IMG/VR virus record: IMGVR_UViG_3300022561_000002
DNA length: 61,570 nt
Strand: one strand, 5' to 3'
DNA from: a virus
Lineage: Duplodnaviria; Heunggongvirae; Uroviricota; Caudoviricetes
The position numbers and the translations under genes were made by a program. Positions 4,293 to 50,411 of this stretch are shown in pieces (within the stretch, counting starts at the first letter, position 1; every line of letters begins with the position of its first letter). The notes under the pieces are model-generated. The model saw only the letters and a list, made by a program, of their open reading frames with translations. It did no database searches and had not been told where the DNA came from.

Positions 4293-4293
4293 T

Positions 4294-33144: not shown

Positions 33145-36036
33145 ATGGGTTTAGAAACTAAAGACGCAAAAGTTTTAATTGATGTCATCAAAGACATTAT
33201 TAAACAAGAAAAGAAAAACGATTCAAAGAATTTAGAATATTCATATTTTGGAATTATTGAATCTATGAACCCAGATGGGACTTTTAATGTTAAAATACCT
33301 ACGGATGATAGTATTTATCCAAATTTATTAAACCAGACAGGTACTGCATTATTAATTGGTGATAGTGTAATCGTACAAGCAAGAAATAATAATATGGGTA
33401 ATGCATATATTTCGTCTAAAAGTGGGGCAACTATAGATGGAGTTGATTCATCGGGATATACAGGTTCTCAAGGTACAATTGGTTATACAGGTTCTATAGG
33501 TTATACAGGTTCTGTTGGTTATGTAGGCTCAAGAGGTTATACCGGTAGCCAAGGAGTTGGATATACAGGTTCAGCTTCTACTGTTATTGGATTTACGGGT
33601 TCGGTTGGATATGTTGGTTCTAGAGGCTACGATGGTAGTCAGGGATATACAGGTTCCGTTGGATATGTGGGTTCTGCATCGACTGTCGTTGGATATACAG
33701 GATCTAAAGGTGACATTGGTTATGTAGGTTCAGCAAGTACGATTATAGGATACACTGGAAGTCAAGGTGGACAAGGAAATATAGGCTATAGTGGTTCTAA
33801 GGGAGATATAGGTTATAGTGGCTCTCAAGGAATAATAGGCTTTACGGGATCTCAAGGGATTATAGGACTTACGGGATCTCAAGGAATTATAGGACTTACG
33901 GGTTTTACGGGTTCAAGAGGATATAGTGGTTCTGTAGGTTTTACGGGCTCTTTTGGTTTTACAGGTTCTATTGGCTACGTTGGTAGTCAAGGAATTATAG
34001 GATATACAGGTAGCCAGGGCATTATAGGTTATACAGGTTCTTTTGGGTACACAGGTTCTTTCGGATATACAGGCTCATTTGGTTTTACGGGATCTTTCGG
34101 TCTAACTGGTTCAAGAGGATACACTGGTTCATTCGGGTTTACAGGTTCTGTTGGATTTGTTGGCTCTCAAGGTATAATTGGTTTAACAGGCTCTCAGGGC
34201 GGACAAGGAATAATTGGTTTTACGGGCTCTAAAGGAGATATAGGTTATGTAGGAAGTGCTTCTACAATAATTGGCTTTACGGGTTCTCAAGGAATCATAG
34301 GATTAACTGGAAGTAGGGGTTACACTGGCTCTTTTGGTTACACTGGCTCTAAAGGGGATATAGGATACGTTGGATCTGCAAGTACAATAATTGGATATAC
34401 AGGTTCTTTTGGATATACAGGTTCTTTTGGATATACAGGTTCTTTTGGATATACAGGTAGTGCCTCAACAATAATTGGATATACTGGTTCAAAAGGTGAC
34501 ATAGGATTTACAGGTTCTAAAGGCGATATCGGACTTACAGGTAGTCAAGGCTATACAGGAAGTACTGGACCAATCGGATACGTAGGCTCAGCTTCAACCG
34601 TTATAGGTTATAGCGGTTCCAAAGGAGATATAGGTTTCACAGGTTCAGCATCAACTATTGTCGGTTATACGGGTTCAGTAGGATTTATAGGCTCAAGAGG
34701 GTATACGGGTTCTGCAAGTACTGTTGTTGGATATACAGGAAGTCAAGGTGTTGGTTACACAGGTTCCGCTTCAACTATAATCGGGTATACTGGTAGCAAA
34801 GGAACTGATGGAGTTATTGGTTACAATGGAAGTGTCGGTTATACGGGTTCTGCTTCAATTGTAATTGGCTACACAGGTAGTCAAGGCATTCAAGGCGTTG
34901 GATATACTGGAAGTGCCTCTACAGTGATAGGATATACAGGCTCTAGAGGAGCGACTGGCTATACTGGCTCTGCTTCAACTGTTATAGGATATACTGGAAG
35001 TCAAGGGGTCGGGTATACAGGAAGTGCATCTACAATCATTGGATATACAGGATCAAGAGGATACAATGGATCTATGGGATACAATGGATCCAATGGTTAT
35101 ACAGGTTCAGCATCTACAATTCCAGGTTTTACAGGTTCACGAGGTATAATAGGATACACAGGGTCTTCCGCAGGTGGAGATTTTACTGATGTTGCATTCC
35201 TACAAAGAACAAATACTGAGATAGTCGCCGCACTGCCAAATATTGATGCGGACTTATTTTTAGGTCATGGATTAGATTACTTTGGAACGGCGCAGAATAT
35301 AATAGACATTAATGCTAAATTTGTTATTAATGATTTTACTTTTGCTGACTTTAAAGACTTTTCAATACCAGCAGGTGAATATACTGTAAACTCTAGTACA
35401 AAATTAAATCCTCCATATGCGGGAGTGGTGACTGGTAGGATTTCGGTTAAGAGATACGCTGATTTAATGTGGTTAGAATTAAGACCAAAAGATAGTACAT
35501 ATTCATATTCATTAAGTTATTCTACTGCAACGGGTTGGATTGGATGGTTTAATTCAAGTCATTCTTTAACTTCTAATAACGCTGATTTAATTGATAATAT
35601 CGACTCTGCTAGACTTGTTTATGGGACAAATGGAACTGGTAGCAACACAATGTCAGTTATTCAAAATGTTTATGAAGAGCCACAACGTAAGTCTGGTTTT
35701 TGGGAGTGTACTGGAGCTTCGTGGACACCAGATACAGGATGGTGGTGGGGCATAACAATAGCACATACCAGTAACTCATCTATTTATAATTACTCAGGAC
35801 AATTTGCTTTTAAAAATGGTGGTGGAGGAACAGAAGTTTATGCAAGAACAATAGGGGGAGGTACTCCGACTGAGTGGTCGAAATTATTAACTACTTCTGG
35901 TGGTACTATGACGGGTATTTTAACCGCACAAAATAATACTTCATATACAACAAAACAAGTTAGAAATATAATTATTTCAACAACAGATGCGGTACTCGCT
36001 AGTATGGCTAATGGAGATATTTGGATAAAAGTTTAA
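33145..36036 (+). CDS. Tail spike/fibre: OB-fold-like N-terminus, GYTGS collagen-like repeats, C-terminal fibre domain
   Basis: GIIESMNPDGTFNV...GDSVIV; Gly-X-Y run aa 104-674; NADLID, GGTMTG, GDIWIKV. Confidence 0.8.
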   Translation: MGLETKDAKVLIDVIKDIIKQEKKNDSKNLEYSYFGIIESMNPDGTFNVKIPTDDSIYPNLLNQTGTALLIGDSVIVQARNNNMGNAYISSKSGATIDGVDSSGYTGSQGTIGYTGSIGYTGSVGYVGSRGYTGSQGVGYTGSASTVIGFTGSVGYVGSRGYDGSQGYTGSVGYVGSASTVVGYTGSKGDIGYVGSASTIIGYTGSQGGQGNIGYSGSKGDIGYSGSQGIIGFTGSQGIIGLTGSQGIIGLTGFTGSRGYSGSVGFTGSFGFTGSIGYVGSQGIIGYTGSQGIIGYTGSFGYTGSFGYTGSFGFTGSFGLTGSRGYTGSFGFTGSVGFVGSQGIIGLTGSQGGQGIIGFTGSKGDIGYVGSASTIIGFTGSQGIIGLTGSRGYTGSFGYTGSKGDIGYVGSASTIIGYTGSFGYTGSFGYTGSFGYTGSASTIIGYTGSKGDIGFTGSKGDIGLTGSQGYTGSTGPIGYVGSASTVIGYSGSKGDIGFTGSASTIVGYTGSVGFIGSRGYTGSASTVVGYTGSQGVGYTGSASTIIGYTGSKGTDGVIGYNGSVGYTGSASIVIGYTGSQGIQGVGYTGSASTVIGYTGSRGATGYTGSASTVIGYTGSQGVGYTGSASTIIGYTGSRGYNGSMGYNGSNGYTGSASTIPGFTGSRGIIGYTGSSAGGDFTDVAFLQRTNTEIVAALPNIDADLFLGHGLDYFGTAQNIIDINAKFVINDFTFADFKDFSIPAGEYTVNSSTKLNPPYAGVVTGRISVKRYADLMWLELRPKDSTYSYSLSYSTATGWIGWFNSSHSLTSNNADLIDNIDSARLVYGTNGTGSNTMSVIQNVYEEPQRKSGFWECTGASWTPDTGWWWGITIAHTSNSSIYNYSGQFAFKNGGGGTEVYARTIGGGTPTEWSKLLTTSGGTMTGILTAQNNTSYTTKQVRNIIISTTDAVLASMANGDIWIKV
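33454..35166 (+). repeat. Collagen-like G-(Y/F)-T-G-S repeat array (about 570 aa)
   Basis: Gly every third residue with GSASTxxG interruptions. Confidence 0.9.
34393..34458 (+). repeat. Perfect 18-nt tandem repeat
   Basis: GGATATACAGGTTCTTTT x3 plus a 12-nt partial copy. Confidence 0.9.
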
Positions 36037-36040
36037 AATT

Positions 36041-36074
36041 TAAAAGGCATAATATGAAAATATTATGCCTTTTA
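36041..36074 (+). terminator. Terminator-like hairpin after the fibre gene
   Basis: TAAAAGGCATAATA-TGAAAA-TATTATGCCTTTTA, 14-bp perfect stem. Confidence 0.8.
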
Positions 36075-36077
36075 TTA

Positions 36078-36106
36078 TTGACAAATCATTTTTTATATGA
36101 TATAAT
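36078..36106 (+). promoter_or_regulatory. Consensus sigmaA promoter of the enzyme cassette
   Basis: TTGACA-17 nt-TATAAT with TG extension. Confidence 0.9.
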
Positions 36107-36154: not shown

Positions 36155-38830
36155 ATGAAAAAGATAAAAATAGCTTTTCTTGATATTGTTGGTTTAAGAT
36201 ACAATGGGCACACCCTTAATAAAAGAGGATTAGGTGGCTCTGAATCTTCAACTATATATATGGCAAAAGAATTAAATGACTTAGGTTTTGATGTTACTGT
36301 TTTTTGCAAAATAGAAGGAGATGAACAAAGTTATGATGGTGTAAATTATATTTCAAATGAAAAGTGTAAAGATAATACTGAAAAATTTGATATATTAGTT
36401 ACATTGCGTTCTTGCGTTCCGTATATACCAATACAATATAGAGAAGATGTATATAGAGAAACTGGATATGATATTGAAAATACTATTGGATTAGTTAAAA
36501 ATAGTGGCTATAAAGTTTTATGGTTACATGATACATTTTGCTCAGGAGATAATTGGCTTGAGCACATATGCATAGACGGATATTTTGATGAAATCTTTAC
36601 ATTATCAGATTGGCACAGTAATTATATTATGAATGGTCATACTTGGAGAGGTAGAATCTTCGAAGTATTAAAAAATAAAATTTGGCAAACAAGAGATGGA
36701 ATAAGAAGCTACATAGATGAAGTTGATATATCTAAAAAAGACAAAGATTTATTTGTATACAATGCGTCAGTATCAAAAGGCATGACACCACTATTAGAGC
36801 AGTGTTGGGGTAAAATAAGAGAACAAATACCAACAGCAAAATTAATGGTTATAGGTGGTTATTATAGAGGTGCAAATCATGATAATCCTGATGAACAAGA
36901 GTTACAGTGGATGAAATTAAAAGAAAATTATGATGGAAAAGATGGAGTTCATTTTACAGGTATAATTTCACAAAGAGAGATTGCTGAAATATTAAGTAAG
37001 GCTTCATTAATGGTTTATCCAGCTTTATTTCCCGAAACATTTGGGATTTCTACATTAGAGTCTTTAAATTATAATACACCATTGGTGACGTGTCGCTTTG
37101 GCGCATTGGAAGAAACAGCAATTGAAAAAGCTTGTTATTTAATTAATTATGATATTAACTATAATGAACAACAAATTGATAGATTTGTAGAAATGGTTTT
37201 AAAAGCATATAATGATGATTATTTAAGAAAGCAAAAAATGTATGCATGTAATGAAACAAAAGAAATAAATACATGGGATACGATTGCTTTACAGTGGAAG
37301 CAGCATTTTTATAATAAATTAGACTTATATATGCCATTTAATGAATTAACAAAAGTAAGAAGGGTTAATTCAGAAGCTCAAAGAATATTTAAAAGAAGAT
37401 TTTTAAACAAAGAGGATATAATTGAAAGTAGTACTGTAAACAATAAATTCATTATAATAACACCTGTATATAATGCAGAAAATTATATAAAAAAATGTAT
37501 TGACAGTGTGGCAAATCAGGTATATAATAAATATAAGATGATTATTATAGACGATATGTCTACTGATAATACAGTTAATATAATAAAAGAAACCATAGAA
37601 AATTATCCACCAAATATTAAAAATAAATTTCAGTTAGTAATTAATACTGAGAAAAAATATGCAGTTAGTAATCAAGTTGATGCAATTAACTTATATGAAA
37701 ATGATTCTAGTATTATAGTTCTATTAGATGGAGATGATTGGTTAGTAAATGATAATGGAGTATTTAATTACTTAGATAATCTTTATATTGATGGATGCGA
37801 TATGTCTTACGGTAGTTGTCATTCTTTAGTTGATAACATAGATTTAATATCAGAACCTTATCCTAAGAATGTAATTGAAGAAAAATCTTTTAGAACACAT
37901 TTATTTACTTGGGGTATGCCTTATACACATTTAAGAACTTTTAAAAAAGAATTATTTAATAAAATAGATAAGTCTTTATTTAGAGATGAAAATGGAGAGC
38001 ATTGGAAAGCTGGTGGAGATAATGCTTTATTTTATCCACTGTTAGAAAATGCAAACAATATAAAATGCATTCAAAGAGTTTTAATGATTTATAATGATAT
38101 TAATCCACTAAATGACTATAAAATTAATGGGGAAGAACAAACTAAAACTGCAAATAAAATAAGAGATAAAAAATATGATATTACAGATATGAATGAGTTA
38201 AAAGATATTTATAATGAAGTTTTAGATAGAAATGATAATGCTATAAAATTATTGAAAGATACTCTTGTTAATAGAAAAGATACTTGGATTGATAATACAG
38301 ATGCACCTAATATAATAGATAGAAAAAATTGGCTTAAAGATAAATTTGAGGAATTAAATATATCTAAAGAAAGTGTTATATTAGATATAGGTTCTTGGAC
38401 TGGTGGGTTTATTAATGAATTTTATAAAATGGGATATAAGGATATATCCTGTGTCGAAATTAGTAAAGAAGCATATAAATTAGGAAGTCAAACATATCCA
38501 AGTTGGCACTGGATGAACGGAGATATAGAAGATTTTGTTTTACCACCTATTAAATATGATGTAGTGGTAATGTTTGAAGTCATAGAACATTTAGTAAATC
38601 CAATAGAAGCTATAAATAAAATAAAATTATCTTTAAGTGATAATGGTAAAATATTTTTTAGTATTCCAAAAGAAGATTCTATGAACGCTGATGGTATGGC
38701 TTATGAACATATATCGTATATAACCAAAAAACAACTTGATGAATTAGATGCTAAGGTTGAAGATTTATCATCTAAAGCAACACATTTTAATTGGTATATG
38801 GGATATATAGAAAATAAAAAAAAAGGATAG
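36155..38830 (+). CDS. GT4 + GT2 glycosyltransferase + SAM methyltransferase fusion
   Basis: GLGGSE and PETFGISTLE (GT-B); ITPVYN...IIDDMSTD...DGDD (GT-A); ILDIGSWTG...FEVIEH (class I MTase). AAGGAGG before MKKIK. Confidence 0.9.
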   Translation: MKKIKIAFLDIVGLRYNGHTLNKRGLGGSESSTIYMAKELNDLGFDVTVFCKIEGDEQSYDGVNYISNEKCKDNTEKFDILVTLRSCVPYIPIQYREDVYRETGYDIENTIGLVKNSGYKVLWLHDTFCSGDNWLEHICIDGYFDEIFTLSDWHSNYIMNGHTWRGRIFEVLKNKIWQTRDGIRSYIDEVDISKKDKDLFVYNASVSKGMTPLLEQCWGKIREQIPTAKLMVIGGYYRGANHDNPDEQELQWMKLKENYDGKDGVHFTGIISQREIAEILSKASLMVYPALFPETFGISTLESLNYNTPLVTCRFGALEETAIEKACYLINYDINYNEQQIDRFVEMVLKAYNDDYLRKQKMYACNETKEINTWDTIALQWKQHFYNKLDLYMPFNELTKVRRVNSEAQRIFKRRFLNKEDIIESSTVNNKFIIITPVYNAENYIKKCIDSVANQVYNKYKMIIIDDMSTDNTVNIIKETIENYPPNIKNKFQLVINTEKKYAVSNQVDAINLYENDSSIIVLLDGDDWLVNDNGVFNYLDNLYIDGCDMSYGSCHSLVDNIDLISEPYPKNVIEEKSFRTHLFTWGMPYTHLRTFKKELFNKIDKSLFRDENGEHWKAGGDNALFYPLLENANNIKCIQRVLMIYNDINPLNDYKINGEEQTKTANKIRDKKYDITDMNELKDIYNEVLDRNDNAIKLLKDTLVNRKDTWIDNTDAPNIIDRKNWLKDKFEELNISKESVILDIGSWTGGFINEFYKMGYKDISCVEISKEAYKLGSQTYPSWHWMNGDIEDFVLPPIKYDVVVMFEVIEHLVNPIEAINKIKLSLSDNGKIFFSIPKEDSMNADGMAYEHISYITKKQLDELDAKVEDLSSKATHFNWYMGYIENKKKG

Positions 38831-38831
38831 T

Positions 38832-39446
38832 GTGGAAATGATGAATGATATAAAGAAGAAAATTTTAATTGCAATACCTACTGCTAAAAATATCGAAACG
38901 GATACCTTCAAATCAATTTATAATTTATATAAGCCTGAAAATACTGAATTGCATTTTGAATGTTTTTATGGTTATAATATAGATCAAGTAAGAAATTTAA
39001 TGGCAAGTTATACCATTAATAATAATTTTGATTACATTTTCTGTGTAGATTCGGATATAGTTTTACCTAAAGATTCTTTGATAAAATTATTATCACACAA
39101 TAAAGATATTATAAGTGGTGTATATAGACAAAGATTTTTAGAGGAAAATATGCCAGAGTTGTACTTAAATGAAAATGGTAGAATTTTTAGAGCTACAATT
39201 GAAGACATTAAAGAAGATAAAATCATGGAAGTGAGTAGTTGCGGCTTTGGATGTACATTAATATCTAAAAGTTTATTATATAGAATAGGATATCCACAAT
39301 TTGAATATCATTCTTCTATTGATTTTAATAAAACAATTTCAGAAGATACAGATTTCTGTATCAAAGCAAATAAATGTGGAACTAAAGTATATGTTGACAC
39401 AAGTATTAAATGTGGACATATAGGAAGTTTTGAATTAAAAATTTAA
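38832..39446 (+). CDS. GT-A (GT2-like) glycosyltransferase
   Basis: IAIPT, RN, VDSD, GFGCTLI, SEDTDFC, CGHIG. Confidence 0.85.
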   Translation: MEMMNDIKKKILIAIPTAKNIETDTFKSIYNLYKPENTELHFECFYGYNIDQVRNLMASYTINNNFDYIFCVDSDIVLPKDSLIKLLSHNKDIISGVYRQRFLEENMPELYLNENGRIFRATIEDIKEDKIMEVSSCGFGCTLISKSLLYRIGYPQFEYHSSIDFNKTISEDTDFCIKANKCGTKVYVDTSIKCGHIGSFELKI

Positions 39447-39463: not shown

Positions 39464-40090
39464 TTGGCTATAACACTTCCTTACTCGACGGCAAATGTGC
39501 AATTTGGTACTGACACATATGTTTATGGTTGGTCAACTTCTGTTGGTTCATATTCTAACTCAAGTGTTATGACATCTAGTGGATATACTCGTATAAATTC
39601 TATAACAAGAAATCCGGATGGCACAAGAACTGTTAATGTAACTGTTTATTATTTAATGGCGATATCAAGAAGTGGATCCGATTCTGGAGTTTATACTTTC
39701 CAATCAACTCCAAATGTAAGATTTTATAATTCTGTATTGGCATCGTATATAACTATATATAACGCGGCTTTAACAACTACATGTGCAACTGGTGCATCGG
39801 CAAGTATAACACATTCATCAACAGTGAATATTTCAGTTCCTGCAACATGGTTCGCAACATCAACAGCAACCTGGAATTTTAGTACCACGCAAGAATGTAA
39901 AGTTGTAACAAGCGGAGCAGTATATACTCATACCAAAATAGATGCGGCGTTTATTATTGAAACTTTAAGAAGTATAGTTGTTAATGTAGATGGCGTATTA
40001 AAAACTGCATCAGCAGTATGGGCTAGAACAAATGATACGTTAAATCCACTCATAGATATGAAGATAGATGTTGATGGGGTATTGAAATGA
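39464..40090 (+). CDS. Ser/Thr-rich virion-like protein
   Basis: TTG after AAGGAG; beta-rich; C-terminal VNVDGVLK...VW motif reminiscent of fibre tips. Confidence 0.55.
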   Translation: MAITLPYSTANVQFGTDTYVYGWSTSVGSYSNSSVMTSSGYTRINSITRNPDGTRTVNVTVYYLMAISRSGSDSGVYTFQSTPNVRFYNSVLASYITIYNAALTTTCATGASASITHSSTVNISVPATWFATSTATWNFSTTQECKVVTSGAVYTHTKIDAAFIIETLRSIVVNVDGVLKTASAVWARTNDTLNPLIDMKIDVDGVLK

Positions 40091-41124
40091 GTATGATATA
40101 TGTATTTTATAACAAATATACTTTGGAAATTCTTACGGTATTAAGACCATTTATAAATAATATTGACATAAATGAATTTATTGAAAGTAGACTTATATAT
40201 GATGATAAATTTAAAAATTTAACATATAGTGATATAGATTATATAATAGAGGATACAGAAGAGTATGATTTTTTTAATGATAATCCATCTATATATAAGT
40301 GTATGTATATTGATAATAAAAAACGCAAATTAAAATTTAAATTAACAAAAAATGAAAATGTATTTATTAATACAACATATAATATACAAAAATATAAAAG
40401 AGATTATACAAATGTAGAAATTAATGAAATGTATGAAGAAGATTATATAAATTTTAATCTTAAAAACATTATGATATCAGATAATGATATTGAATTTTCT
40501 TTTGAGTATTTAAAAGATTTAAATATTAGGACTAAGATGGTTAATAAAAGATGGAAAAGTTTTCATAATGATCCATATTTAACTGAATCTTCTCAAGATA
40601 AAACCATGCTAGGAAAATCTATAGCAAAAATAGGAACATATTATCCTATATTAGTTGAACCCCAAAAGTCTGAAAATGGATTATATGCTTTAGAGGGCTC
40701 TCATAGAATAACCTCTTTAAAGCTTCTTCAAATGGAAGGTGGCATTCCAGAAGATTTTAAAATATTTTGTATTCATATGCCATATTCTTATCAAGATATA
40801 GAAACACCGAAAATGTTTACTGTATTAAAAAATCCAATATTAATCAGAAGAATAATCGAAGTTTATTACGGATCTGAAATACTAAATGATTCTATTTTAT
40901 ATGAAAAGGCATTATCTTCAATCAAAGAAGACGGAGATAAAATCATTAATAAATATACTTATGAAACATACATATATACGTTAGAAGAGCTATTGTCTGC
41001 TGTTGACTCATATCCACATTGGTTGAGAGATTTAATCCATATAGATGGTAGTATATTTCCTAGTGAAATAATTAATAAAGAATTAAAATTTAAGGAGTGG
41101 GTAAACGAATGTTATCACATATAA
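40087..41124 (+). CDS. ParB/Srx-fold protein, paralogue 1
   Basis: SIAKIGTYYPILV...LEGSHRITSL. Confidence 0.7.
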   Translation: MSMIYVFYNKYTLEILTVLRPFINNIDINEFIESRLIYDDKFKNLTYSDIDYIIEDTEEYDFFNDNPSIYKCMYIDNKKRKLKFKLTKNENVFINTTYNIQKYKRDYTNVEINEMYEEDYINFNLKNIMISDNDIEFSFEYLKDLNIRTKMVNKRWKSFHNDPYLTESSQDKTMLGKSIAKIGTYYPILVEPQKSENGLYALEGSHRITSLKLLQMEGGIPEDFKIFCIHMPYSYQDIETPKMFTVLKNPILIRRIIEVYYGSEILNDSILYEKALSSIKEDGDKIINKYTYETYIYTLEELLSAVDSYPHWLRDLIHIDGSIFPSEIINKELKFKEWVNECYHI

Positions 41125-42029
41125 GAAGAGTAGACATAGAGTTTCATTCATTTTGTAATAGAAGATGTATATGGTGTCCTAATACAGACTTTATAAGAGA
41201 TGATGAAGATATTGAAATGAGTGATGAACTTTATTCAAAAATCATAAATGAATTAAAAGATAATAATTTTGGAAAGTATCCTAGATTTCCTTTATCAGAA
41301 AATCGATCTCCAAAAGATAGTCCTAATTATTCAAAATTTATTATCAATCAGCCAGTTTTATCCTTTCTTGGTTATCAAGAACCATTATCAAATATACCAT
41401 TATTAAAGAAAAGAGTGCAAGAGGCTTGGGAAAAATTACCGCCTCATATAGAACTTGTTTCTAATACAAATGGAGATTATCTTACAGAAAAATCATTAGA
41501 CGGTTTGTTACTTACTACTTTAAATATTAAAGATTACGATTCTAAAGGTATGGAGTATTGGAAAGAAAGATTAAAAAAACTTGGCGTATTAATAATAGAT
41601 ATAGATGAAAATATAGAGCAAATTATAGGTGTCCATAAAAATGTAGGAAATGTAACTTGTTATTGTAATTGGCCTAAGCATATTGACCTAGAAGATAGAG
41701 GTGGATTTTTGAAAAAAGAAGATATCCCTGATATAAAATGGCGAAATAATGCGAAAGAACGAACTGAAATTTGTTTAGAACCAAGCTATTATATCAACAT
41801 TCATTACAATGGAGATATTATGCCGTGTTGTCATTTAAGAATGGATAATCCTATGCATAAAGAATTCATTCTAGGTAATGTAAATAATAATACTTTAGTA
41901 GAAATACATAATAATGAAAAAGCTAATAATTTGAAAGAAATACTTTCGATAGAAGATGGTAATTTCCCTTCAACTTGTTTAAATTGTCAAAAAATTAGGC
42001 AAGAGGGGTTAAACAGGTTTCCCTCATGA
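41109..42029 (+). CDS. Radical SAM/SPASM(twitch) protein 1
   Basis: CNRRCIWC; NTNG; CLEP...GDIMPCC...GN...CLNC. Confidence 0.9.
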   Translation: MLSHIRRVDIEFHSFCNRRCIWCPNTDFIRDDEDIEMSDELYSKIINELKDNNFGKYPRFPLSENRSPKDSPNYSKFIINQPVLSFLGYQEPLSNIPLLKKRVQEAWEKLPPHIELVSNTNGDYLTEKSLDGLLLTTLNIKDYDSKGMEYWKERLKKLGVLIIDIDENIEQIIGVHKNVGNVTCYCNWPKHIDLEDRGGFLKKEDIPDIKWRNNAKERTEICLEPSYYINIHYNGDIMPCCHLRMDNPMHKEFILGNVNNNTLVEIHNNEKANNLKEILSIEDGNFPSTCLNCQKIRQEGLNRFPS

Positions 42030-43030
42030 TATATGGAATAATTTTTTATGATAGCATAGATGGAGAAATGCTTTATAATACTAGTTGTATAGATTATAAT
42101 AATATAGAAAAAATTATAGATAATTGTTATGAATATCTAAATATAGAATATAAAAGCATTAAAAATATTTTATATAAATTATATGATTATAATTTATACA
42201 AAGACAATTTTGAAAAACATCAAAGTGTTAGAGTTACATCAGATGGAGAAATATTTTTTTCAGATAAAGAAATAAAATATAGAATTGGTCTTAAACATAG
42301 CATGACAGATAGATGGTATCCACTATTCGAAGAAATGTCAGGCATTTATAATAAAGAAAATCAAGTTATAAGTCTTGAAATATTAACATATTACTACAAT
42401 GATTTTATTAATTATAATCTTAAAAATATTTGTAAAATAGTGCCGTTTCATTTTTTACACCCTAATGAAATGTTTAGATCTAATGAAAATAATGAGAAAG
42501 CGTTAGTAAGATGGGGCGAAGACTTAATACCAACGTTAGTTGAAATGTGTGAAGAGCTTAATATAAATAACTGTATATTTCCATTTCAGGTTAGAAAAAA
42601 GAATGATAGCTTTTTGATATTAGATGGTTCTCATAAATTAATAGCAATGAAGGAATTAATTAAAAACGATTCTTTTAAAATAGATAGAAAGATTCTTTCA
42701 ATTGAATTTAATAGTGTTAATCCTACTTCTATTGATAATAACACTATTAATTGTAAATTAGATAACCCAATTACTATGCATATACCTAAATTATTATTAA
42801 ATAAATATCATTTTATAAACTATCTAACTATGCAAGATTTTGATGATAATATTATGGAAGTTACTGTAGATAGATATATTGAAATGGTTACTTTATTTAG
42901 AGTTTATATATTAGAATTAACTATTCCTATAAGAAGATATAAAATAATAACAGGAAAGACATTAAGTCCGTTTGATTTTATAGAGGATGAATACAAATTT
43001 AAGATATGGATGGAAGACGATAATGAATAA
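42026..43030 (+). CDS. ParB/Srx-fold protein, paralogue 2
   Basis: CIFPFQV...LDGSHKLIAM. Confidence 0.65.
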   Translation: MIYGIIFYDSIDGEMLYNTSCIDYNNIEKIIDNCYEYLNIEYKSIKNILYKLYDYNLYKDNFEKHQSVRVTSDGEIFFSDKEIKYRIGLKHSMTDRWYPLFEEMSGIYNKENQVISLEILTYYYNDFINYNLKNICKIVPFHFLHPNEMFRSNENNEKALVRWGEDLIPTLVEMCEELNINNCIFPFQVRKKNDSFLILDGSHKLIAMKELIKNDSFKIDRKILSIEFNSVNPTSIDNNTINCKLDNPITMHIPKLLLNKYHFINYLTMQDFDDNIMEVTVDRYIEMVTLFRVYILELTIPIRRYKIITGKTLSPFDFIEDEYKFKIWMEDDNE

Positions 43031-43766
43031 AATTCAAAAAAGACTAATAGAAAACTGGTCTGACCTTCAACTTAATATATGGCAAAACATACAAAATGAT
43101 TATACTAGAAAAATAATTGTAGATAAAACATATATTATTACTAATCTTTATAAAGAACAAAAGATTATTTTAGATAATTATATTGATTATAAATTTATTA
43201 AAGAATTTTATAATTATTTCATAGATAATATTAAAATAATAATGGGAAATTATTTATATGAATATATATACCCACAAGATACTAGGATCATAGATGTAAA
43301 AGGCGGCATATCTTTTAATGGATTTTCATTTTCTTTATCCTCAATGTGTGAAAGTATTTTAAAAAATGGATTATATATACCTTTAATATGCGATAGACAA
43401 AGCAATGACACACTAGCTATTGTTGGAGGAAGACATAGAATAATTGCTCTAAAAGAAATATATAATAAAAGAAAATTTTTATGTCTTATGTTTAATGAAA
43501 GACAATCTGATATAAAATGTGAGTTCACGTTACCAACTATATTATTAGAAAAATATTTTAATAATTATGATATTATATATTGTAAAATAGATAAATATTT
43601 TTCTATAGTATATATTGATAATCCAGTGGATTTATGGATTTTATTTAAATTACAAGAAAAGGAACTTGATTTAATATTTGAAATGTATTCAGAGCAATTA
43701 TATGAAAACAATATATTTGGTTCTGAATTACTTTTTAAAAAAGGAGAAGAGGTATGTTATGAATGA
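43023..43766 (+). CDS. ParB/Srx-fold protein, paralogue 3
   Basis: SILKNGLYIPLIC...VGGRHRIIAL. Confidence 0.72.
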   Translation: MNKIQKRLIENWSDLQLNIWQNIQNDYTRKIIVDKTYIITNLYKEQKIILDNYIDYKFIKEFYNYFIDNIKIIMGNYLYEYIYPQDTRIIDVKGGISFNGFSFSLSSMCESILKNGLYIPLICDRQSNDTLAIVGGRHRIIALKEIYNKRKFLCLMFNERQSDIKCEFTLPTILLEKYFNNYDIIYCKIDKYFSIVYIDNPVDLWILFKLQEKELDLIFEMYSEQLYENNIFGSELLFKKGEEVCYE

Positions 43767-45030
43767 ACTAAAGCCATTAGGAAAATTTAATTATGCAAAA
43801 ATGAACGGGAGTATGCCTTTAAGAGAAAAGGTTATTTATTTAGAATCGTATTTATCATCAAGAAAAATATTCTCTAAATATTACCTAGATGAATATAGTT
43901 TAGAGAAAAGAAATAAAAAACATGATTGGATTGAAAAATATTTTAGTAAAGTAATATCTTTAGAAGGAATTAATATGGTAGAGTCTACCACAAACGAAAT
44001 AAAAGGAGATATTGTAGATTTAAGTAATATTAAAAAAGGTGTACTATCGGAGATAATGTATATTGGAGATAAATTGAGGTGTAAATTTTTATATCTTGAA
44101 AATGATGGTTCTATTGAAATGATGACATTATTTTTAACAGAAGAAGAATGTGATGAAATGAGAATATTAAGTGAAGATTTAGACTATTTATTTTATGAAG
44201 AAAGTTTATCTCTTGGGGATGACGTTATTAGCAATCCAAATATTATAGTTGAAAAAATAAGAAATAAAAAAGATAGAAATTATGTTACTACAAAATTTGA
44301 AGGCGATTGGACAGAAGAACAAAAAGATACTTGGGAAATAATAAAGCAAATTAGTCCCAGAGTCCGCATTGATGGAAAAGTTCATATTAATGCAGTTTTA
44401 TATTCTACCGGATATTTATTTCATAATGATAAAAGTTTGAGAATGGACTTTATTAATGAATTTGTTAATGCTTTTTATTCTAATGTAAAAAATATGACAA
44501 AGGCTTTTGATTATGATTATTTGCAATTTTCAGAAATTCAGGATAAACTTCAGGATTTAAGGAACGGCGCAGGCTTTGATGGATTTTCTTTTACTTTAGA
44601 TTCATTAAAAAACGATATATATACAAATGGTTTATTTTTCCCAATGTATGCCTATATAAATAAAGAGCCTGGTAAGTATGTTATCTGCGGCGGCAGGCAT
44701 CGACTTATCGCTATTAATCAATTAGTAGAAGAAGGACTATGGAAAGATAGAAAAATCCTATGTATGTTTTGGGATTCTCGTAAACAATTTGATAGTATAG
44801 ATTTAATTATTCCAAATATAATTATAGAAAAAATGTTATATAAATTAAATATTGATATAAAACCATATTCAAGTGGATTTTCAACTGTAGGAGTTAAAAA
44901 CATTATTGACTTTTGGATTGTTATGCGTGTATTTGAAAAAGAAATGGACTTTTTAATAGAAAAATATGAAGATGAATTACTTAGTTATGGTATAAAGGCA
45001 TCTAAATTTATTAACCCTTGGATGGTGTAG
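43759..45030 (+). CDS. ParB/Srx-fold protein, paralogue 4 (extra N-terminal domain)
   Basis: DIYTNGLFFPMYA...CGGRHRLIAI. Confidence 0.72.
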   Translation: MNELKPLGKFNYAKMNGSMPLREKVIYLESYLSSRKIFSKYYLDEYSLEKRNKKHDWIEKYFSKVISLEGINMVESTTNEIKGDIVDLSNIKKGVLSEIMYIGDKLRCKFLYLENDGSIEMMTLFLTEEECDEMRILSEDLDYLFYEESLSLGDDVISNPNIIVEKIRNKKDRNYVTTKFEGDWTEEQKDTWEIIKQISPRVRIDGKVHINAVLYSTGYLFHNDKSLRMDFINEFVNAFYSNVKNMTKAFDYDYLQFSEIQDKLQDLRNGAGFDGFSFTLDSLKNDIYTNGLFFPMYAYINKEPGKYVICGGRHRLIAINQLVEEGLWKDRKILCMFWDSRKQFDSIDLIIPNIIIEKMLYKLNIDIKPYSSGFSTVGVKNIIDFWIVMRVFEKEMDFLIEKYEDELLSYGIKASKFINPWMV

Positions 45031-45031
45031 T

Positions 45032-45754
45032 ATGGATGATATAGCTTTCTCAGAGATACAAAAAAAATATTTAAAAATTAAGAAATCAAAATACCATGAA
45101 ACAAATGGTAAGCAAAATAATAATAGTATTTTAAATTATAATCCACAAAAAAACTTTAATGAAATTATACTTTTATATAATATCTTTATTGATAATTTAA
45201 AATCAATGATAGATAGTAAATCTTTTGATGGTGGATACTGCGGAAAAGAGTTTTTAAAAAAACAAATTAGAGATTCAAAAGAAGAAATTGATTTTAATAA
45301 ATTCTTTATTCCATATGCGGAATTAGAGTATATTGTATATAATACTGGATGCTATCTACCAATGGTAGTATTTAAAACAGAAGAAAAATATAATATAATG
45401 GAATGTTTACATAGCAGGTATCCATCTACTATGTTGCAAATATTATTTTCAGAAAATAAAATAGATAATAGAAGTATATTTTATATAGAGAAAAGTTTTA
45501 TTAAAAAAAATAGTGAATGTAATTTGAAAATTCCAAAACAACTTTATGATGAGGTTATTATTAATTTAGAATTAGAAGTAATAGAAACACAATCAAATTT
45601 TTTAACAATAAAAACAAAAGATAATATGGACGCATGGTTAATATTTAAATTAATTCACAAAGAAGTAAGTTGGGTAACAGGCAAATATGGGTTTGAGTTA
45701 TACAATATGGGAATGAAGCCATCTAATTTTATAAATATAGAGGAGAATAATTAA
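45032..45754 (+). CDS. ParB/Srx-fold protein, paralogue 5 (degenerate motif)
   Basis: NTGCYLPMVV...ECLHSRY; shares C-terminal motifs with paralogues 3 and 4. Confidence 0.55.
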   Translation: MDDIAFSEIQKKYLKIKKSKYHETNGKQNNNSILNYNPQKNFNEIILLYNIFIDNLKSMIDSKSFDGGYCGKEFLKKQIRDSKEEIDFNKFFIPYAELEYIVYNTGCYLPMVVFKTEEKYNIMECLHSRYPSTMLQILFSENKIDNRSIFYIEKSFIKKNSECNLKIPKQLYDEVIINLELEVIETQSNFLTIKTKDNMDAWLIFKLIHKEVSWVTGKYGFELYNMGMKPSNFINIEENN

Positions 45755-45755
45755 A

Positions 45756-46457
45756 ATGATATATAATAAAAATACTGTTATTGCCGAGTTAGCTGGTAAA
45801 GATAGTATAGTAGCTATAATAAAATACGCAAAGGAAAATAAAGATAGTTATATTCTTCCTACAATTATTAAAGTTCCTTCTGAGGAAAGTAGACACCAAG
45901 AGCTTTTTTCATTTTATGAACAATTACAAAATTATATTACAACTCTTGGGTCACATATGTATACACCTTTATTTTTAGATGAATCTACTTATTGGTGGAG
46001 TCTTAATCAACCAATCGCAAGTATGATAAAAGAATATAATTTCTATAGTCCATGTATTGCGTGTCATGGATTATTACACTCTATAAGGATTCCTTTGGCT
46101 CAGGTCTATAGTGGTAAAATACTAACTGGAGAAAAGCTTTTACATAATGGGAAAATAAAAATAAACCAAAATAGCATAGTTCTTGATATTTTTGATGATT
46201 TATTTAAGAAATATAATATTGAAGTTATTAGGCCGATAGATGATGATGCGAATGAAATTATAGATGAATTTTATAATCAATATAATATAGAGGAAGTAAA
46301 ATATATAAAATGTTATATGAGTGGAAATTCAAACGTTAATCACATAAATGATTTAAAAGAATATAATATAAATAAATATTGTTATGAATACCTTATACCT
46401 AAACTAGATAATATTATTAAAGAGATAAAAGAGGAGGGTAATATATATGACAAGTGA
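45756..46457 (+). CDS. PP-loop (adenine nucleotide alpha hydrolase-like) protein
   Basis: VIAELAGKDS (SGGxDS-like), PCIACH, ILTGE, KINQ, CYMSGN. Confidence 0.6.
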   Translation: MIYNKNTVIAELAGKDSIVAIIKYAKENKDSYILPTIIKVPSEESRHQELFSFYEQLQNYITTLGSHMYTPLFLDESTYWWSLNQPIASMIKEYNFYSPCIACHGLLHSIRIPLAQVYSGKILTGEKLLHNGKIKINQNSIVLDIFDDLFKKYNIEVIRPIDDDANEIIDEFYNQYNIEEVKYIKCYMSGNSNVNHINDLKEYNINKYCYEYLIPKLDNIIKEIKEEGNIYDK

Positions 46458-47310
46458 AAATTGCGATTATATAGAAAGACAAAAAGACTTAAATAAAAAT
46501 GGGAAAAGATTATATGGTAAAAAAATGTTACAAAGCCATGTTCCATATAATATTTGGAACGAGGAAACAGATACTTTTGATTTAGATAAAATACTTAAAA
46601 TATATGAATGCTTTAAGTATAATATGATTTTACTATCTGAAGATTTTATACCACACTGGATTGAACCAGAAGGGTTATTATATACAACAAAATCTTTGAT
46701 TTGGGATTGGACTGATGAAAGTGAGTTAAATAAAACTGCTGATAGTATAGAAAAATATGGACTTTACTTTCCAATATTTGTCTTACCTAAAGGTATGTTA
46801 CATAATCAGATATGCGATTTAGAAGAAGAAGCTAGATTAAAAAATTTGAATATATATAATTCATATAATGGAAATCATAGGATAGATGCAATACAGTTTT
46901 TAAAAGAAAACAATAGATTCAATAAAAAAATACTTGTTTATGAGATTCCTCCATATTGTCAAAAATCATGTACTGGATTTAAATATACATTTATAGATCA
47001 TAATGAACCAAATGAATTGACCGACTATAAACTTAAAACAGGAGTTAGACTATACCATCTATCTTATTTAGAAGATGAAATGAAAATGTCTAATTTAGAG
47101 TTTTGTAAAAATATAGAAGATGGAATAGTCCAAGTTCGTGTTGATAATTACAATACTGCATTTAGGATATTAACAGAAATGCAGAATGCGCTAGAGGCAC
47201 CATTAACTAGATATTTTGAATTGTATAATAAATTACCAGACGGCTTAGATAATTCTTTTTTTAATAACTATGAGATATGGAAAAAGGAAGTGGTTAAATA
47301 TGACTGGTGA
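46447..47310 (+). CDS. ParB/Srx-fold protein, paralogue 6
   Basis: SIEKYGLYFPIFV...NGNHRIDAI. Confidence 0.72.
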   Translation: MTSENCDYIERQKDLNKNGKRLYGKKMLQSHVPYNIWNEETDTFDLDKILKIYECFKYNMILLSEDFIPHWIEPEGLLYTTKSLIWDWTDESELNKTADSIEKYGLYFPIFVLPKGMLHNQICDLEEEARLKNLNIYNSYNGNHRIDAIQFLKENNRFNKKILVYEIPPYCQKSCTGFKYTFIDHNEPNELTDYKLKTGVRLYHLSYLEDEMKMSNLEFCKNIEDGIVQVRVDNYNTAFRILTEMQNALEAPLTRYFELYNKLPDGLDNSFFNNYEIWKKEVVKYDW

Positions 47311-47485
47311 GGAAATTATTCAGTTGGGTAAAGCTTGTAAATCAATACATTTTGAAATACCTTTATGCGTTGACTGGGAAACCCGAAAATACTGTGATAG
47401 AAAATTATGTTGTACGGTGTGTCCTCAACTATATGGATGCGATATTGTTTGTGATGAATTGGCAAAAATTTTATATAAAATATAA
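47300..47485 (+). CDS. Cys-rich peptide (61 aa, 8 Cys)
   Basis: Start overlaps the upstream gene end; MTGEEII...YCDRKLCCTVCPQLYGCDIVC. Confidence 0.7.
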   Translation: MTGEEIIQLGKACKSIHFEIPLCVDWETRKYCDRKLCCTVCPQLYGCDIVCDELAKILYKI

Positions 47486-47486
47486 T

Positions 47487-47515
47487 TTGACTAATACTTA
47501 AATATATGATATAAT
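47487..47515 (+). promoter_or_regulatory. Internal sigmaA promoter
   Basis: TTGACT-17 nt-TATAAT with TG extension. Confidence 0.85.
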
Positions 47516-47553
47516 AAAAATATGATATCACAAGTATAGATAAAAGGAGAAAC

Positions 47554-48369
47554 ATGATAAACAATTTAAGATTAGTTGAAATAGAGCTTTTTTCATATTG
47601 CAATAGACAATGCGGATGGTGCCCTAATAATACCATAGATAGACTTTCGTTTAATAAGTTTATTGATACAAAAGTTTTATTACATCTTTTAAAAGAATTA
47701 AAAGAAAATAATTATGATGGAGCAATAACCTTTTCTAGATATAATGAACCTATGTCGCACATAAAACAATTTAAAGATTTTTTATATGAAATAAAAAATG
47801 AACTTCCTAATAATAAACTAATAACAAATACAAACGGGGATTTTATTTCTAAAGAAAATTTAATGGGCTTAATGTTAGATGAATTAACCATAATGGACTA
47901 TGATGGATTAGGAATAGATGGTTGTATAGAGGTATTAAATAAAGCAAATGTAATTATTGATGATGTGAAATATCCTTATATATATGGACATTTTGACTCT
48001 ATAGAAATATTATATTTTGTTGATTGGCAAAAAAATAGAAAGATTACTGATAGAGGTGGTTTTCTAAAAAGCTATTCGCAAATATTACGAGATAAGCCGT
48101 GTTTTGAACCAAATTATTTTGTAGGTATTAATTACGATGGAACTGTATCTCCTTGTTGTAATATAAGAAATGATATAGAACAACATAAACCATATATAAT
48201 TGGAGACCTAAATAATAACTCTTTCTCAGAAGTATTATCAAGTTATAAATCTAATTTAATAAAAAAAATATGTAATAACGGGAGTTTTATAAAAGATTCC
48301 CCATGTTATATGTGTGAAAATAGTGGCGGAAGATATACAAGAGGGAATGGGGGCATATCATATGAATAA
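47554..48369 (+). CDS. Radical SAM/SPASM(twitch) protein 2
   Basis: CNRQCGWC; NTNG; CFEP...GTVSPCC...GD...CYMC. Confidence 0.9.
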   Translation: MINNLRLVEIELFSYCNRQCGWCPNNTIDRLSFNKFIDTKVLLHLLKELKENNYDGAITFSRYNEPMSHIKQFKDFLYEIKNELPNNKLITNTNGDFISKENLMGLMLDELTIMDYDGLGIDGCIEVLNKANVIIDDVKYPYIYGHFDSIEILYFVDWQKNRKITDRGGFLKSYSQILRDKPCFEPNYFVGINYDGTVSPCCNIRNDIEQHKPYIIGDLNNNSFSEVLSSYKSNLIKKICNNGSFIKDSPCYMCENSGGRYTRGNGGISYE

Positions 48370-49015
48370 AAAAGTAGGGATATACATTCCCGCAAGGTTA
48401 AACAGTGAAAGACTTCCAAATAAACAAATACTACCAATAGGAGATACTTGTTTATTTGATATTGCATGTAAGAAATTGAACGAACTGCCAACGTATATTA
48501 ATAAGTATGCTTTAATTTATGAAAAAGAATTAATAGATATAGCAAGTAAGTATCCTAATATAAATATAATTCAAAGAAGCGAAGAGACCGCGAAAGCAGA
48601 AACTCCTCTTAATTATATTTTTCAAGATATGAAATACGTAGAGGATACTCATTTAATGTTCTTGAACCCTTGTCTTTTGTTTTTAACGAAAGAAACTATA
48701 TTAAAAGCATTAGATGAATTTATAAATTCTGATAACGATTATGCTACAAGTGTAAAACCATTTCATAATTGGATTTTAGATGAAAGAGGATTATGTCTGA
48801 ATGATATTAATTATAAAGAGTTAACAACTAAAAAAATCGAAGGATTATATCAATTTGCTCATTGTTTCCATATCTTTAATAAAGAAAACTTTTTTAAAGA
48901 CGGATATATGTTAAAATCAATGTTTTTGCCATTAGTTATTGCGGATGAAGAGACTATTGATGTTGATACTTTAGAAGAGTATAAATATGCGAGGTGGAAA
49001 TATGAAAATATATGA
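48362..49015 (+). CDS. neuA: CMP-nonulosonate synthetase-like cytidylyltransferase
   Basis: IPARLNSERLPNK; DVDTLEEY. Confidence 0.82.
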   Translation: MNKKVGIYIPARLNSERLPNKQILPIGDTCLFDIACKKLNELPTYINKYALIYEKELIDIASKYPNINIIQRSEETAKAETPLNYIFQDMKYVEDTHLMFLNPCLLFLTKETILKALDEFINSDNDYATSVKPFHNWILDERGLCLNDINYKELTTKKIEGLYQFAHCFHIFNKENFFKDGYMLKSMFLPLVIADEETIDVDTLEEYKYARWKYENI

Positions 49016-49310
49016 GGTTGATTTAGATGGAACTCTATGTACAAATACGTATGGAAATTATGAGAATGCTCAACCCATCCTCGAGAACATCGAAAAAATT
49101 AATAACCTGTATAGAAATGGTAACATTATTAATATTAATACTGGTCGTGGTAGCACCACTAGTATTGATTGGTATAATTTAACAGAGAAACAATTAAAAT
49201 TATGGGAAATAAAATACCACACTTTAACAGTTGGTAAAAAACCCTATTATGATTATATTATAGATGATAAAGCAATAAATGAGTGCGAGGAGGATTGGGA
49301 ATGTTTATAG
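49002..49310 (+). CDS. Minimal HAD phosphatase (EcbF/BcbF-like)
   Basis: DLDGTLC, TGR, KP, IIDDKA. Confidence 0.82.
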   Translation: MKIYEVDLDGTLCTNTYGNYENAQPILENIEKINNLYRNGNIININTGRGSTTSIDWYNLTEKQLKLWEIKYHTLTVGKKPYYDYIIDDKAINECEEDWECL

Positions 49311-50119
49311 CAGAAATTGGAATAAACCATGGCGGAGATATAAATATAGCTAAAGAATTAATTCTTATGGCTAAGAGGTCTGGCGCAAATGTAGTTAAAT
49401 TTCAGAAACGAAATGTAGAAGAAAATATATTACCACAAGACTTAAATACAACAAGAGAAACCTTAAAGGGAACTCGATCTTATTTAGATTATAAAACAGA
49501 TTTAGAATTTGAAATCTATGCTTATAGAGAGATAGATAAATTCTGTAAGTCTATTAATATGCCATGGACTGTTAGTGTTTGGGATATTACAAGTGTAGAG
49601 TTTATTTCACAATTTGATATCCCTTTTATTAAAGTTCCAAGTGCAAGAATTAATGAATTAGATTTATTAGAAGCTATTAACTCTACTGGTATTCCTGTGG
49701 TATTAAGTACTGGAATGAGTTCAAAAGAAGAAGTCGATAGTGCTATAAATGCTCTTGATAATCTTTCTTGTATAATGCACTGTGAAAGTATATACCCTCC
49801 AAAAGATAATGAATTAAATTTGAATATAATATCTTATTTAAAGGATTGTTATCCCAATATTAAAATTGGATATAGTAGTCATGATACATCAATTTATCCT
49901 ATGTTATGCGCGAGTACTCTAGGGGCAGAAATATTTGAAGCACATATAACATTAAATAAAAATATGATTGGTTCAGATCAAAAATGTAGCTTTGAAGAGA
50001 AGGAGTTAACCGAAATGATTTCTTTAATCAATAAAAGCAAACTATGGTTGGGGAATAAAGAAATTACTTGTTTAGAATCAGAAGAGCCTGCCAAGAAGAA
50101 ACTAAGACGAAAGTCTTAA
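49301..50119 (+). CDS. neuB: N-acetylneuraminate synthase family, lacking the C-terminal SAF domain
   Basis: IAEIGINHGG, VKFQKR, LSTGM, HCESIYP, GYSSHD, EAHITL, GSDQ. Confidence 0.9.
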   Translation: MFIAEIGINHGGDINIAKELILMAKRSGANVVKFQKRNVEENILPQDLNTTRETLKGTRSYLDYKTDLEFEIYAYREIDKFCKSINMPWTVSVWDITSVEFISQFDIPFIKVPSARINELDLLEAINSTGIPVVLSTGMSSKEEVDSAINALDNLSCIMHCESIYPPKDNELNLNIISYLKDCYPNIKIGYSSHDTSIYPMLCASTLGAEIFEAHITLNKNMIGSDQKCSFEEKELTEMISLINKSKLWLGNKEITCLESEEPAKKKLRRKS

Positions 50120-50165: not shown

Positions 50166-50411
50166 ATGGCAGTAATAGATACGTTAATAGATGGCAATGA
50201 TGTTGAGCAATATCCGAAAACAGTTACCGCTGCTATTTACGACAAGGACACAAATGAACGATTAGATAATAAATTGGCTAAAACTGTAGAGAATACTATA
50301 GTAGGTCAGAATTTAAAAGTATGGTATGGCACTAGAGTAGAGTATAATGCGATTATAACAAAAGATGTTAGTACGTTATATTTTATTAAAGATGTTATAG
50401 ATCCATTATAA
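50166..50411 (+). CDS. Small tail-fibre-associated protein
   Basis: YPKT and WYGTRVEYNAIITKDVSTLYFI motifs common in fibre proteins. Confidence 0.6.
   Translation: MAVIDTLIDGNDVEQYPKTVTAAIYDKDTNERLDNKLAKTVENTIVGQNLKVWYGTRVEYNAIITKDVSTLYFIKDVIDPL

Follow-up and report, generated by a model that had tools for sequence, protein, structure and literature searches.

Does a phage tail fibre whose collagen stalk is almost devoid of proline depend on sugars attached by an enzyme encoded next to it? The question is raised by a stretch of 61,570 nucleotides (hereafter the window, meaning the whole DNA analysed) from a virus of the Caudoviricetes, IMG/VR record IMGVR_UViG_3300022561_000002. Here a tail-fibre gene with a long collagen-like stalk stands upstream of a cassette of sugar genes that begins with glycosyltransferases (GTs). 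A first-pass annotation had proposed that the fibre is the acceptor of this cassette. We find that collagens of this type and the enzyme encoded by the first two cassette genes, which combines GT4, GT2 and GT-A domains, are a conserved unit, and that the pair moves as a unit between unrelated phages. The GT4-GT2-methyltransferase of the window is proposed to be the fibre glycosyltransferase.

The fibre is encoded by a single open reading frame (ORF) with three parts, an N-terminal helix plus OB-fold domain, a collagen of 572 residues and a mosaic C-terminal tip (Table 1). The segment singled out in the first-pass annotation, 33454-35166, covers residues 104-674 of this 963-residue protein (33145-36036, plus strand). 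The stalk (residues 104-675) contains 164 Gly-X-Y triplets in 16 unbroken runs, the longest of 57 triplets, and matches the Pfam Collagen family PF01391 with E = 2.1e-50 and a score of 168.8 bits, the cut-off being 27.2. Runs of at least four triplets hold 158 triplets, while 2000 shuffles of the same composition reach a maximum of 37. The stalk is composed of 30.4% Gly, 15.9% Ser, 12.6% Thr, 9.3% Ile, 9.1% Tyr and 4.2% Phe (13% Tyr+Phe and 28% Ser+Thr), with 1.4% Lys and only two prolines (0.3%). The X position is mainly Ser (67), Tyr (48) or Phe (14), and is Pro in 1 of 164 triplets; the Y position is most commonly Thr (52 of 164), followed by Ile (23) and Gln (19). In 44 cases a Gly-aromatic-Thr triplet precedes a G-S-x triplet, which confirms the G-[Y/F]-T-G-S-x hexad. 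The succession is interrupted by 15 GSAS[T/I]xxG breaks and four GVGYTG (GVG) breaks. These features bear out the earlier description of about 570 residues of G-Y/F-T-G-S-x repeats, poor in proline, rich in aromatic residues, Ser and Thr, and recurrently broken by GSASTxxG.

Typical bacterial and phage collagens carry about 19-31% Pro at X and Thr at Y (PMC8968730). The stalk shares with them Thr as the commonest Y residue and lacks their proline-rich X position. Its repeats predict a collagen-type triple helix. At the DNA level the stalk contains tandem arrays with units of 18 bp and 27 bp, including one perfect array, and therefore grows by repeat expansion. The perfect array, 3.8 copies of an 18-bp unit at 34391-34458, codes for GYTGSF hexads and indicates that the stalk expanded recently.

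This composition is not peculiar to the window gene, because it recurs in a large set of relatives. Six short fibre peptides recovered 212 IMG/VR relatives, of which 78 loci were kept. The main collagen ORF of these loci has 0-3% Pro (a few have 7-16%), 13-23% Tyr+Phe in nearly all, mostly 30-48% Ser+Thr, and tens to hundreds of G[YF][TSV]GS hexads. In addition, the stalk has about 1000 matches among unnamed metagenomic proteins at E <= 1e-20. Among GenBank phages the best matches, from S-CAM7, CRP-114 and vB_BpsS-36, are ordinary collagens with 10-29% Pro and 0-4% aromatic residues, and G-[Y/F]-T-G-S hexads were not found in them. The proline-free, aromatic, Ser/Thr-rich collagen is thus a distinct and abundant class, met here only in uncultured phages and a few contigs of metagenome-assembled genomes (MAGs).

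The first enzyme gene starts with an ATG at 36155, 118 bp downstream of the fibre stop codon (36034-36036), and the fibre does stand directly upstream of the glycosyltransferases, as had been claimed. Between the two lie a hairpin with a T-run and a promoter-like sequence, so arranged that the enzyme genes would have their own strong promoter behind a terminator-like hairpin. In the fusion protein, the GT4 domain matches Pfam Glycos_transf_1 (E = 6.7e-15) and the GT2 domain matches Glycos_transf_2 (E = 1.8e-17). The EX7E glutamates E302 and E310 of the former, as well as D475/S477/D479 and D533/D535/D536 of the latter, are invariant in 21 sequences. The first domain thus has the GT-B C-terminal part with EX7E of retaining GT4 enzymes, and the second the GT-A fold with DxD of inverting GT2 enzymes. 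The best sequence match of the GT2 domain in the PDB is 5hea (E = 6.2e-10), GalT1 of Streptococcus parasanguinis, which acts in glycosylation of the Fap1 adhesin; chondroitin synthase and TagF score nearly as well. Searches of the enzyme proteins against NCBIfam gave only superfamily matches far below cut-off, and no curated NCBIfam or PHROG family names them. The methyltransferase domain is limited to the window lineage and a few others among the relatives.

The small GT-A-like protein is the fourth domain of the fused enzyme in most relatives, including the closest relative of the window (locus L001), and a separate ORF in the window. Within 38811-38840, an A-run (aaaataaaaaaaaaagg) lies just 5' of the stop codon that ends the GT fusion; the GT-A ORF comes next and is read in a different frame. 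The separation could be a natural split, slippage or a homopolymer assembly error.

The linkage was examined from both sides. Starting from the collagens, the ORFs of all fibre-selected loci were searched with every cassette protein. Of the 79 loci, 48 contain the GT fusion (E about 1e-200) and 40 the small GT-A. Among non-redundant collagen-selected loci, 29 of 56 carry the enzyme within 10 kb. Ten loci on longer contigs appear to be exceptions; eight of these carry the enzyme elsewhere on the contig (E <= 1e-177), and the remaining two are fragments estimated to be 15-31% complete. Homologues of the baseplate neighbour and of the fibre's own N- and C-terminal domains occur, within the fibre-selected loci, in L001 only.

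Starting from the enzymes, an alignment of 21 sequences was used as the search query. It recovered at least 591 viral relatives in IMG/VR, and no homologue was found in 50,697 GenBank phage records. In 185,579 species genomes there are just three close matches, all on MAG contigs and two of them with the whole gene; the two contigs long enough to judge also bear such collagens. The other matches in these genomes are distant GT2-domain relatives in Chlamydiae and Dependentiae. The enzyme family is, therefore, almost virus-only. Identity to the window enzyme is 41-52% in 19 aligned loci and 80% in L001, and the GC content of the fetched loci ranges from 31 to 56%. Of 55 non-redundant enzyme-selected loci, the 37 with at least 2 kb of 5' flank were counted: a collagen ORF lies within 1 kb of the enzyme's 5' end in 28 of the 37, against 1 of 34 in the control at the 3' end. 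Of the 28 adjacent collagens, 26 belong to the G[YF][TSV]GS type, and 26 are transcribed divergently from the enzyme. Where at least 5 kb is available on both sides of the enzyme, a collagen ORF is present in every case (15/15).

The phages that carry the pair are of at least two kinds. Neighbours in the enzyme-selected loci include T4-type tail-fibre genes, and a complete 202-kb genome and a 327-kb contig carrying the pair have T4 Gp23 capsid genes. In the window and its relatives L001 and L094, the enzyme is instead downstream of the collagen on the same strand, in a phage backbone unrelated to the T4-like one. CheckV estimates completeness at 5-36% for pair-bearing contigs of 45-327 kb (L013, L074, L007, L009), which points to very large genomes for several of these phages. 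A giant-virus origin of the large related contigs was considered and rejected: T4 Gp23 is present, and a search for capsids of nucleocytoplasmic large DNA viruses, run without a positive control, gave no match. As a separate observation, the distant GT2-domain relatives on contigs of Chlamydiae, Dependentiae and other MAGs (L177-L202) form tandem paralogue arrays in intracellular bacteria, and collagen-like ORFs of a different type, with about 50% Ser/Thr, lie near some of them (L188:22467-23798, L197:3620-5941, L199:18368-20761).

The first-pass annotation had held that its proposal would fail if GYTGS fibres commonly lacked nearby glycosyltransferases. By the above counts it survives for the first two cassette genes. 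The remaining cassette is another matter. Homologues of its radical SAM, ParB-like, CMP-sugar synthase, HAD, NeuB and unassigned proteins occur in L001 only, with none in about 130 other loci. At most, then, the fibre would be the acceptor for the glycosyltransferase pair, a narrower claim with strong support at the genomic level, and not for the cassette as a whole; the sialic-acid-like sugar genes are outside the conserved unit.

The anatomy of the fibre and its genomic coupling to the enzyme can be read directly from these loci. From the coupling we infer an enzyme and its substrate, because the association persists when backbone, orientation and distance change, the enzyme is conserved across phages of very different base composition and is essentially virus-only, the collagen repeat is the sole feature common to its neighbours, and membrane segments are absent from all 15 cassette proteins. 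A triple helix with aromatic residues at X and without imino acids is intrinsically weak, and a stabilising modification is therefore attractive. We consider direct O-glycosylation of the stalk by this enzyme probable, if some way from secure.

The mechanism that we propose would run as follows. The fibre would be a trimeric tail fibre. Its N-terminal helix and OB-fold domain would most probably attach it to the tail tip as in a central spike, the stalk would extend for about 160 nm (at 0.286 nm per residue), and the mosaic C-terminal part would bind the host. The soluble GT4-GT2-methyltransferase and the GT-A protein, as the dedicated partner enzyme of this collagen class, would act in the cytoplasm ahead of assembly. 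One GT domain may initiate a short O-linked glycan, either at the recurring Thr of the Y position or at Ser of the X position, the others may extend it, and in the window lineage the glycan would be methyl-capped. The sugars would provide hydration, stiffness and shielding from proteases and antibodies, as proline and hydroxyproline do in ordinary collagens; the role in folding or shielding is proposed here by analogy with Riftia collagen and BclA/BclA3. Both the attachment site and the stabilising role are parts of this inferred scheme. The sialic-acid-like sugar genes may add an extra, lineage-specific sugar.

A stronger version can be formulated, that of a distinct and widespread phage "glyco-collagen". 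Here the stalk would be stable only once decorated by its own virus-specific three-glycosyltransferase enzyme, with sugars replacing proline and hydroxyproline and with a remodelled sialic-acid-like cap in the window; it would be the first glycosylation system of a phage tail fibre, spread as an enzyme-substrate pair between unrelated lineages. We put this forward tentatively, as somewhat less likely than not.

Several points weigh against glycosylation of the stalk by this enzyme. Nine of the 37 enzyme-selected loci lack a collagen gene in the first 1 kb from the 5' end of the enzyme, and the few loci from a narrower single-protein scan are mostly without a collagen in the fetched flank. Pfam finds only GT1, GT2 and methyltransferase domains in the enzyme, with no tetratricopeptide (TPR) repeats; it lacks any recognisable module for substrate binding of the kind that TPR repeats provide in SgtA, a known glycosyltransferase of a collagen-like protein. 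Phe often replaces Tyr in the hexad and Val sometimes replaces Thr, and the acceptor thus differs between hexads. In addition, adjacency in a hypervariable host-recognition region can arise by hitch-hiking, and a strong promoter of its own behind a terminator is the typical layout of host-acting morons.

The last of these points belongs to the alternative that survives best. Glycosyltransferases in phage tail-fibre regions are usually read as modifiers of the host (PMC7029224; PMC10202952), and the enzyme may accordingly alter teichoic acid, capsule or lipopolysaccharide on the host surface in the course of infection or lysogeny, for superinfection block or for release, its place beside the fibre being a shared hot spot of host recognition. 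The separate promoter after the terminator suits such a role, and so do weak NCBIfam and PDB similarities to the polysaccharide enzymes TuaG, EpsE and TagF. A host-polymer enzyme should, however, vary with the host, whereas this one keeps 41-52% identity in 19 loci, in a set that spans 31-56% GC and two unrelated backbones. Its 5' end adjoins a single class of collagen in 28 of 37 loci (1 of 34 at the other end), and it is nearly absent from the 185,579 cellular species genomes. The cassette also has no flippase, polymerase or other membrane protein: 0 of its 15 proteins have membrane segments, which the holin-like genes downstream do have, and a surface polymer would therefore lack its export and assembly machinery. 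On these grounds we regard the host-polymer role as unlikely.

Alternatively, the enzyme may glycosylate another virion protein, such as the capsid, the tail tube, other fibres or the Ser/Thr-rich 208-residue protein encoded inside the cassette (39464-40090), or else the non-collagen ends of the fibre, leaving the stalk bare. Virions of mycobacteriophages are reportedly glycosylated, to go by the title of a 2023 paper by Freeman et al., and the cassette itself encodes a Ser/Thr-rich protein. Conservation points elsewhere: the N- and C-terminal domains, the baseplate genes and the 208-residue protein are not conserved with the enzyme, and only the collagen repeat is. This makes another acceptor improbable. 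There is likewise only a slim chance that the fibre is unglycosylated, its helix held by trimerisation domains on either side and by the side chains of aromatic and beta-branched residues, and the linkage being a mobile two-gene cassette kept by recombination, since hitch-hiking leaves unexplained both the linkage across changes of orientation and backbone and the contig-level linkage at more than 10 kb, even though many bacterial collagens fold without modification (PMC8968730) and fibre genes are highly mosaic.

Table 1. Position of the fibre, its parts and the genes that follow it in the window.
Feature	Coordinates	Strand	Basis or remarks
Tail-fibre gene, 963 aa (P0001)	33145..36036	+	AGGAG-type ribosome-binding site before ATG; position after tape-measure and tail genes
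N-terminal domain, aa 1-103, helix + OB-fold barrel	33145..33453	+	AlphaFold model, structural matches
Collagen-like stalk, aa 104-675	33454..35169	+	G-[Y/F]-T-G-S-x hexads, Pfam, triplet counts, tandem DNA arrays
C-terminal mosaic region, aa 676-963	35170..36033	+	Module sharing with other fibres
Hairpin + T-run	36046..36076	+	Read from sequence; starts ten bases after the fibre stop
Predicted promoter (TTGACA, 17-nt spacer, TGaTATAAT)	36078-36083, 36098-36106	+	Read from sequence
GT4-GT2-S-adenosylmethionine (SAM)-methyltransferase fusion, 891 aa	36155..38830	+	EX7E, DDxSTD and DGDD motifs; no membrane segment
Small GT-A-like protein	38838..39446	+	VDSD motif; own ribosome-binding site; separate ORF after A-run
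Lineage-specific sugar-tailoring genes	39464..50119	+	Two radical SAM/SPASM, CMP-sugar synthase, HAD phosphatase, NeuB, others; all soluble

The N-terminal domain had been described as an OB-fold-like spike domain, and the OB fold stands. The AlphaFold model (34 sequences, mean confidence pLDDT 80.8) has one long helix and a five-stranded barrel. Its best structural match is the R2 pyocin spike 4s37 (Z 9.1, root-mean-square deviation 2.6, 68 residues aligned), followed by Mu gp45 (9ki1_V), P2 gpV (3qr8) and the spikes of phi92, VgrG and PVC/AFP. These spike matches come from a wider structural aligner. Foldseek against the PDB returned nothing at E <= 0.001, and only OB folds between 1e-3 and 5e-2. 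Similar scores come from generic OB folds, among them IF1 and the N-domain of PAN with its coiled coil plus OB. Since Z values of 7-9 are common among OB folds, the modelled kinship with gpV-type spikes is suggestive only. A three-copy prediction scored 0.16 against a mark of 0.42 and counts neither way. There was no match of the domain in PHROGs or NCBIfam. Its family comprises 158 cluster representatives, either stand-alone proteins of about 95 residues or the N-terminus of fibres of many lengths, and some fibres that share it end in the Pfam "phage tail tip" motif.

The C-terminal region is presumably the receptor-binding part. It includes one domain common only to the window fibre and its single close homologue, a KSGFWE/WWWG module found also in long phage fibres that end in endosialidase-chaperone domains, and a conserved, widespread tail-tip end of about 50 residues. 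A model of residues 676-963 from an eight-row alignment was unusable (pLDDT 44); NCBIfam gave no match and PHROGs only weak tail-protein matches. The homologue, P0002 (L001:10001-14068, 1355 residues), has a collagen stalk interrupted by a non-collagen insert of about 770 residues. It has a different module at the KSGFWE/WWWG position, indicating module swapping within one fibre lineage.

The remaining roughly 11 kb of the cassette also includes a ParB-like protein. The downstream sugar genes possibly supply donor sugar, and it is doubtful that the product of the sialic-acid-like sugar genes ends up on the fibre. Positions 42001-48000, in the middle of the cassette, have 23-26% GC against about 30% elsewhere, consistent with separate acquisition of the sugar-tailoring genes.

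The window as a whole has a GC content of about 30%. It encodes a portal, a virion structural protein, an ORF of tape-measure size (1862 residues) and tail proteins. An amidase endolysin is also encoded, and small membrane proteins come after it. When 24 kb of it was compared with the 50,697 GenBank phage records, there was no DNA match. Near the left end lie a Nol-like carbamoyltransferase (2601-4403, minus strand, PHROG E = 6e-117), which could be a further sugar-decorating enzyme, and a PhoH-like protein (5776-6984, plus strand). Two Gly-rich tail-module proteins, at 29146-30630 (494 residues) and 50424-51620 (398 residues), flank the block of fibre and cassette on both sides, the second preceded by an 81-residue protein with the Pfam "phage tail tip" motif (50166-50411). 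They were considered as extra collagens and rejected, as their long C-terminal regions are of the GGxGG type and not Gly-X-Y.

If the stalk is indeed decorated by its partner enzyme, hundreds of uncultured phages, both large T4-like ones and the low-GC phage of the window, would have a dedicated sugar-coating for their host-recognition organ. This would affect the stability of the fibre, its resistance to proteases and antibodies, and perhaps the choice of receptor. Many "auxiliary" glycosyltransferases that are now read as modifiers of the host surface would need reassignment. In addition, these phages would offer a natural test of whether O-glycans can replace proline in a triple helix, and a compact enzyme-substrate pair for the production of glycosylated recombinant collagens.

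Collagen-like surface proteins that carry O-glycans and have a transferase encoded alongside are already known, as is the glycosylation of virions by virus-encoded enzymes; our literature searches turned up no account of this pairing of collagen and enzyme in phages. One close parallel is in Clostridioides difficile, where sgtA lies immediately upstream of bclA3 and SgtA adds O-linked N-acetylglucosamine to Thr in the collagen repeats (PMC7157674), a glycan that is then extended and capped. There, as here, a collagen-like protein with Thr at Y adjoins a glycosyltransferase gene, and in our loci the linkage holds across genomes. The differences lie in the enzyme, the repeats and the setting. 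SgtA consists of one GT-A domain plus TPR repeats, whereas the window has a GT4-GT2-methyltransferase and a GT-A protein without them, and between the two no homology was shown beyond the GT2 superfamily. BclA-type repeats are Pro-rich (GPT), whereas X is Tyr, Phe or Ser here, and BclA3 is a protein of the spore surface (exosporium), not of a tail fibre. The Bacillus exosporium glycoprotein BclA has repeats that are O-glycosylated, which is thought to aid hydration and stability (PMC8968730). It resembles our fibre in having a collagen stalk with an anchoring domain at its N-terminal end and a globular trimer at its C-terminal end, and differs in composition, setting and enzymes, its glycan being made from host operons and not by one fused enzyme. 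In Riftia collagen, galactosyl-threonine is linked to thermal stability (PMC10141479).

Viruses of eukaryotes provide two further comparisons. Mimivirus/Marseillevirus L230 is a collagen lysyl hydroxylase-glucosyltransferase (PMC9614988), so that a virus is known to put sugar on its own collagen-like protein, as is proposed here. L230 attaches glucose to hydroxylysine by means of a 2-oxoglutarate oxygenase domain, in contrast to the window stalk, which is almost without Lys. Chlorovirus PBCV-1 encodes A064R, a GT-GT-methyltransferase that builds and methyl-caps the glycan of the capsid protein Vp54, and A111/114R, with three GT domains (PMC9614988). Like the enzyme proposed here, A064R is a virus-encoded, soluble, multi-domain enzyme acting on the virus's own structural protein in the cytoplasm. 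The likeness is one of architecture only: no A064R entry is among the PDB sequence matches of the window enzyme at E <= 0.01, and A064R comes from a eukaryotic virus, makes an N-linked glycan and has a capsid target in place of a collagen.

The other comparisons concern the fibre itself. Spikes of the gpV type (P2 gpV 3qr8, 4s37, 9ki1_V) share with it an N-terminal OB fold of similar size and topology (Z 7.3-9.1) before a trimeric extension. They continue into a triple beta-helix needle with a metal-binding apex, whereas in the window collagen begins after residue 103 and a fibre-tip motif stands at the end, so that a collagen stalk and a presumed receptor-binding end take the place of the needle. 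The ordinary collagen fibres of Synechococcus phage S-CAM7, Roseobacter phage CRP-114 and Bacillus phage vB_BpsS-36 use collagen repeats as a spacer, as this fibre does, but differ in their proline and aromatic contents, in lacking the hexads and in having no homologue of the window enzyme. In the cultured cyanophage S-CAM7 (L203, KU686213.1 166958-180358) the proline-containing collagen fibre is directly preceded by genes for an unrelated glycosyltransferase, a GT11, an adenylylsulfate kinase and a deoxysugar dehydrase. Sugar genes next to the fibre may be a wider theme in phages.

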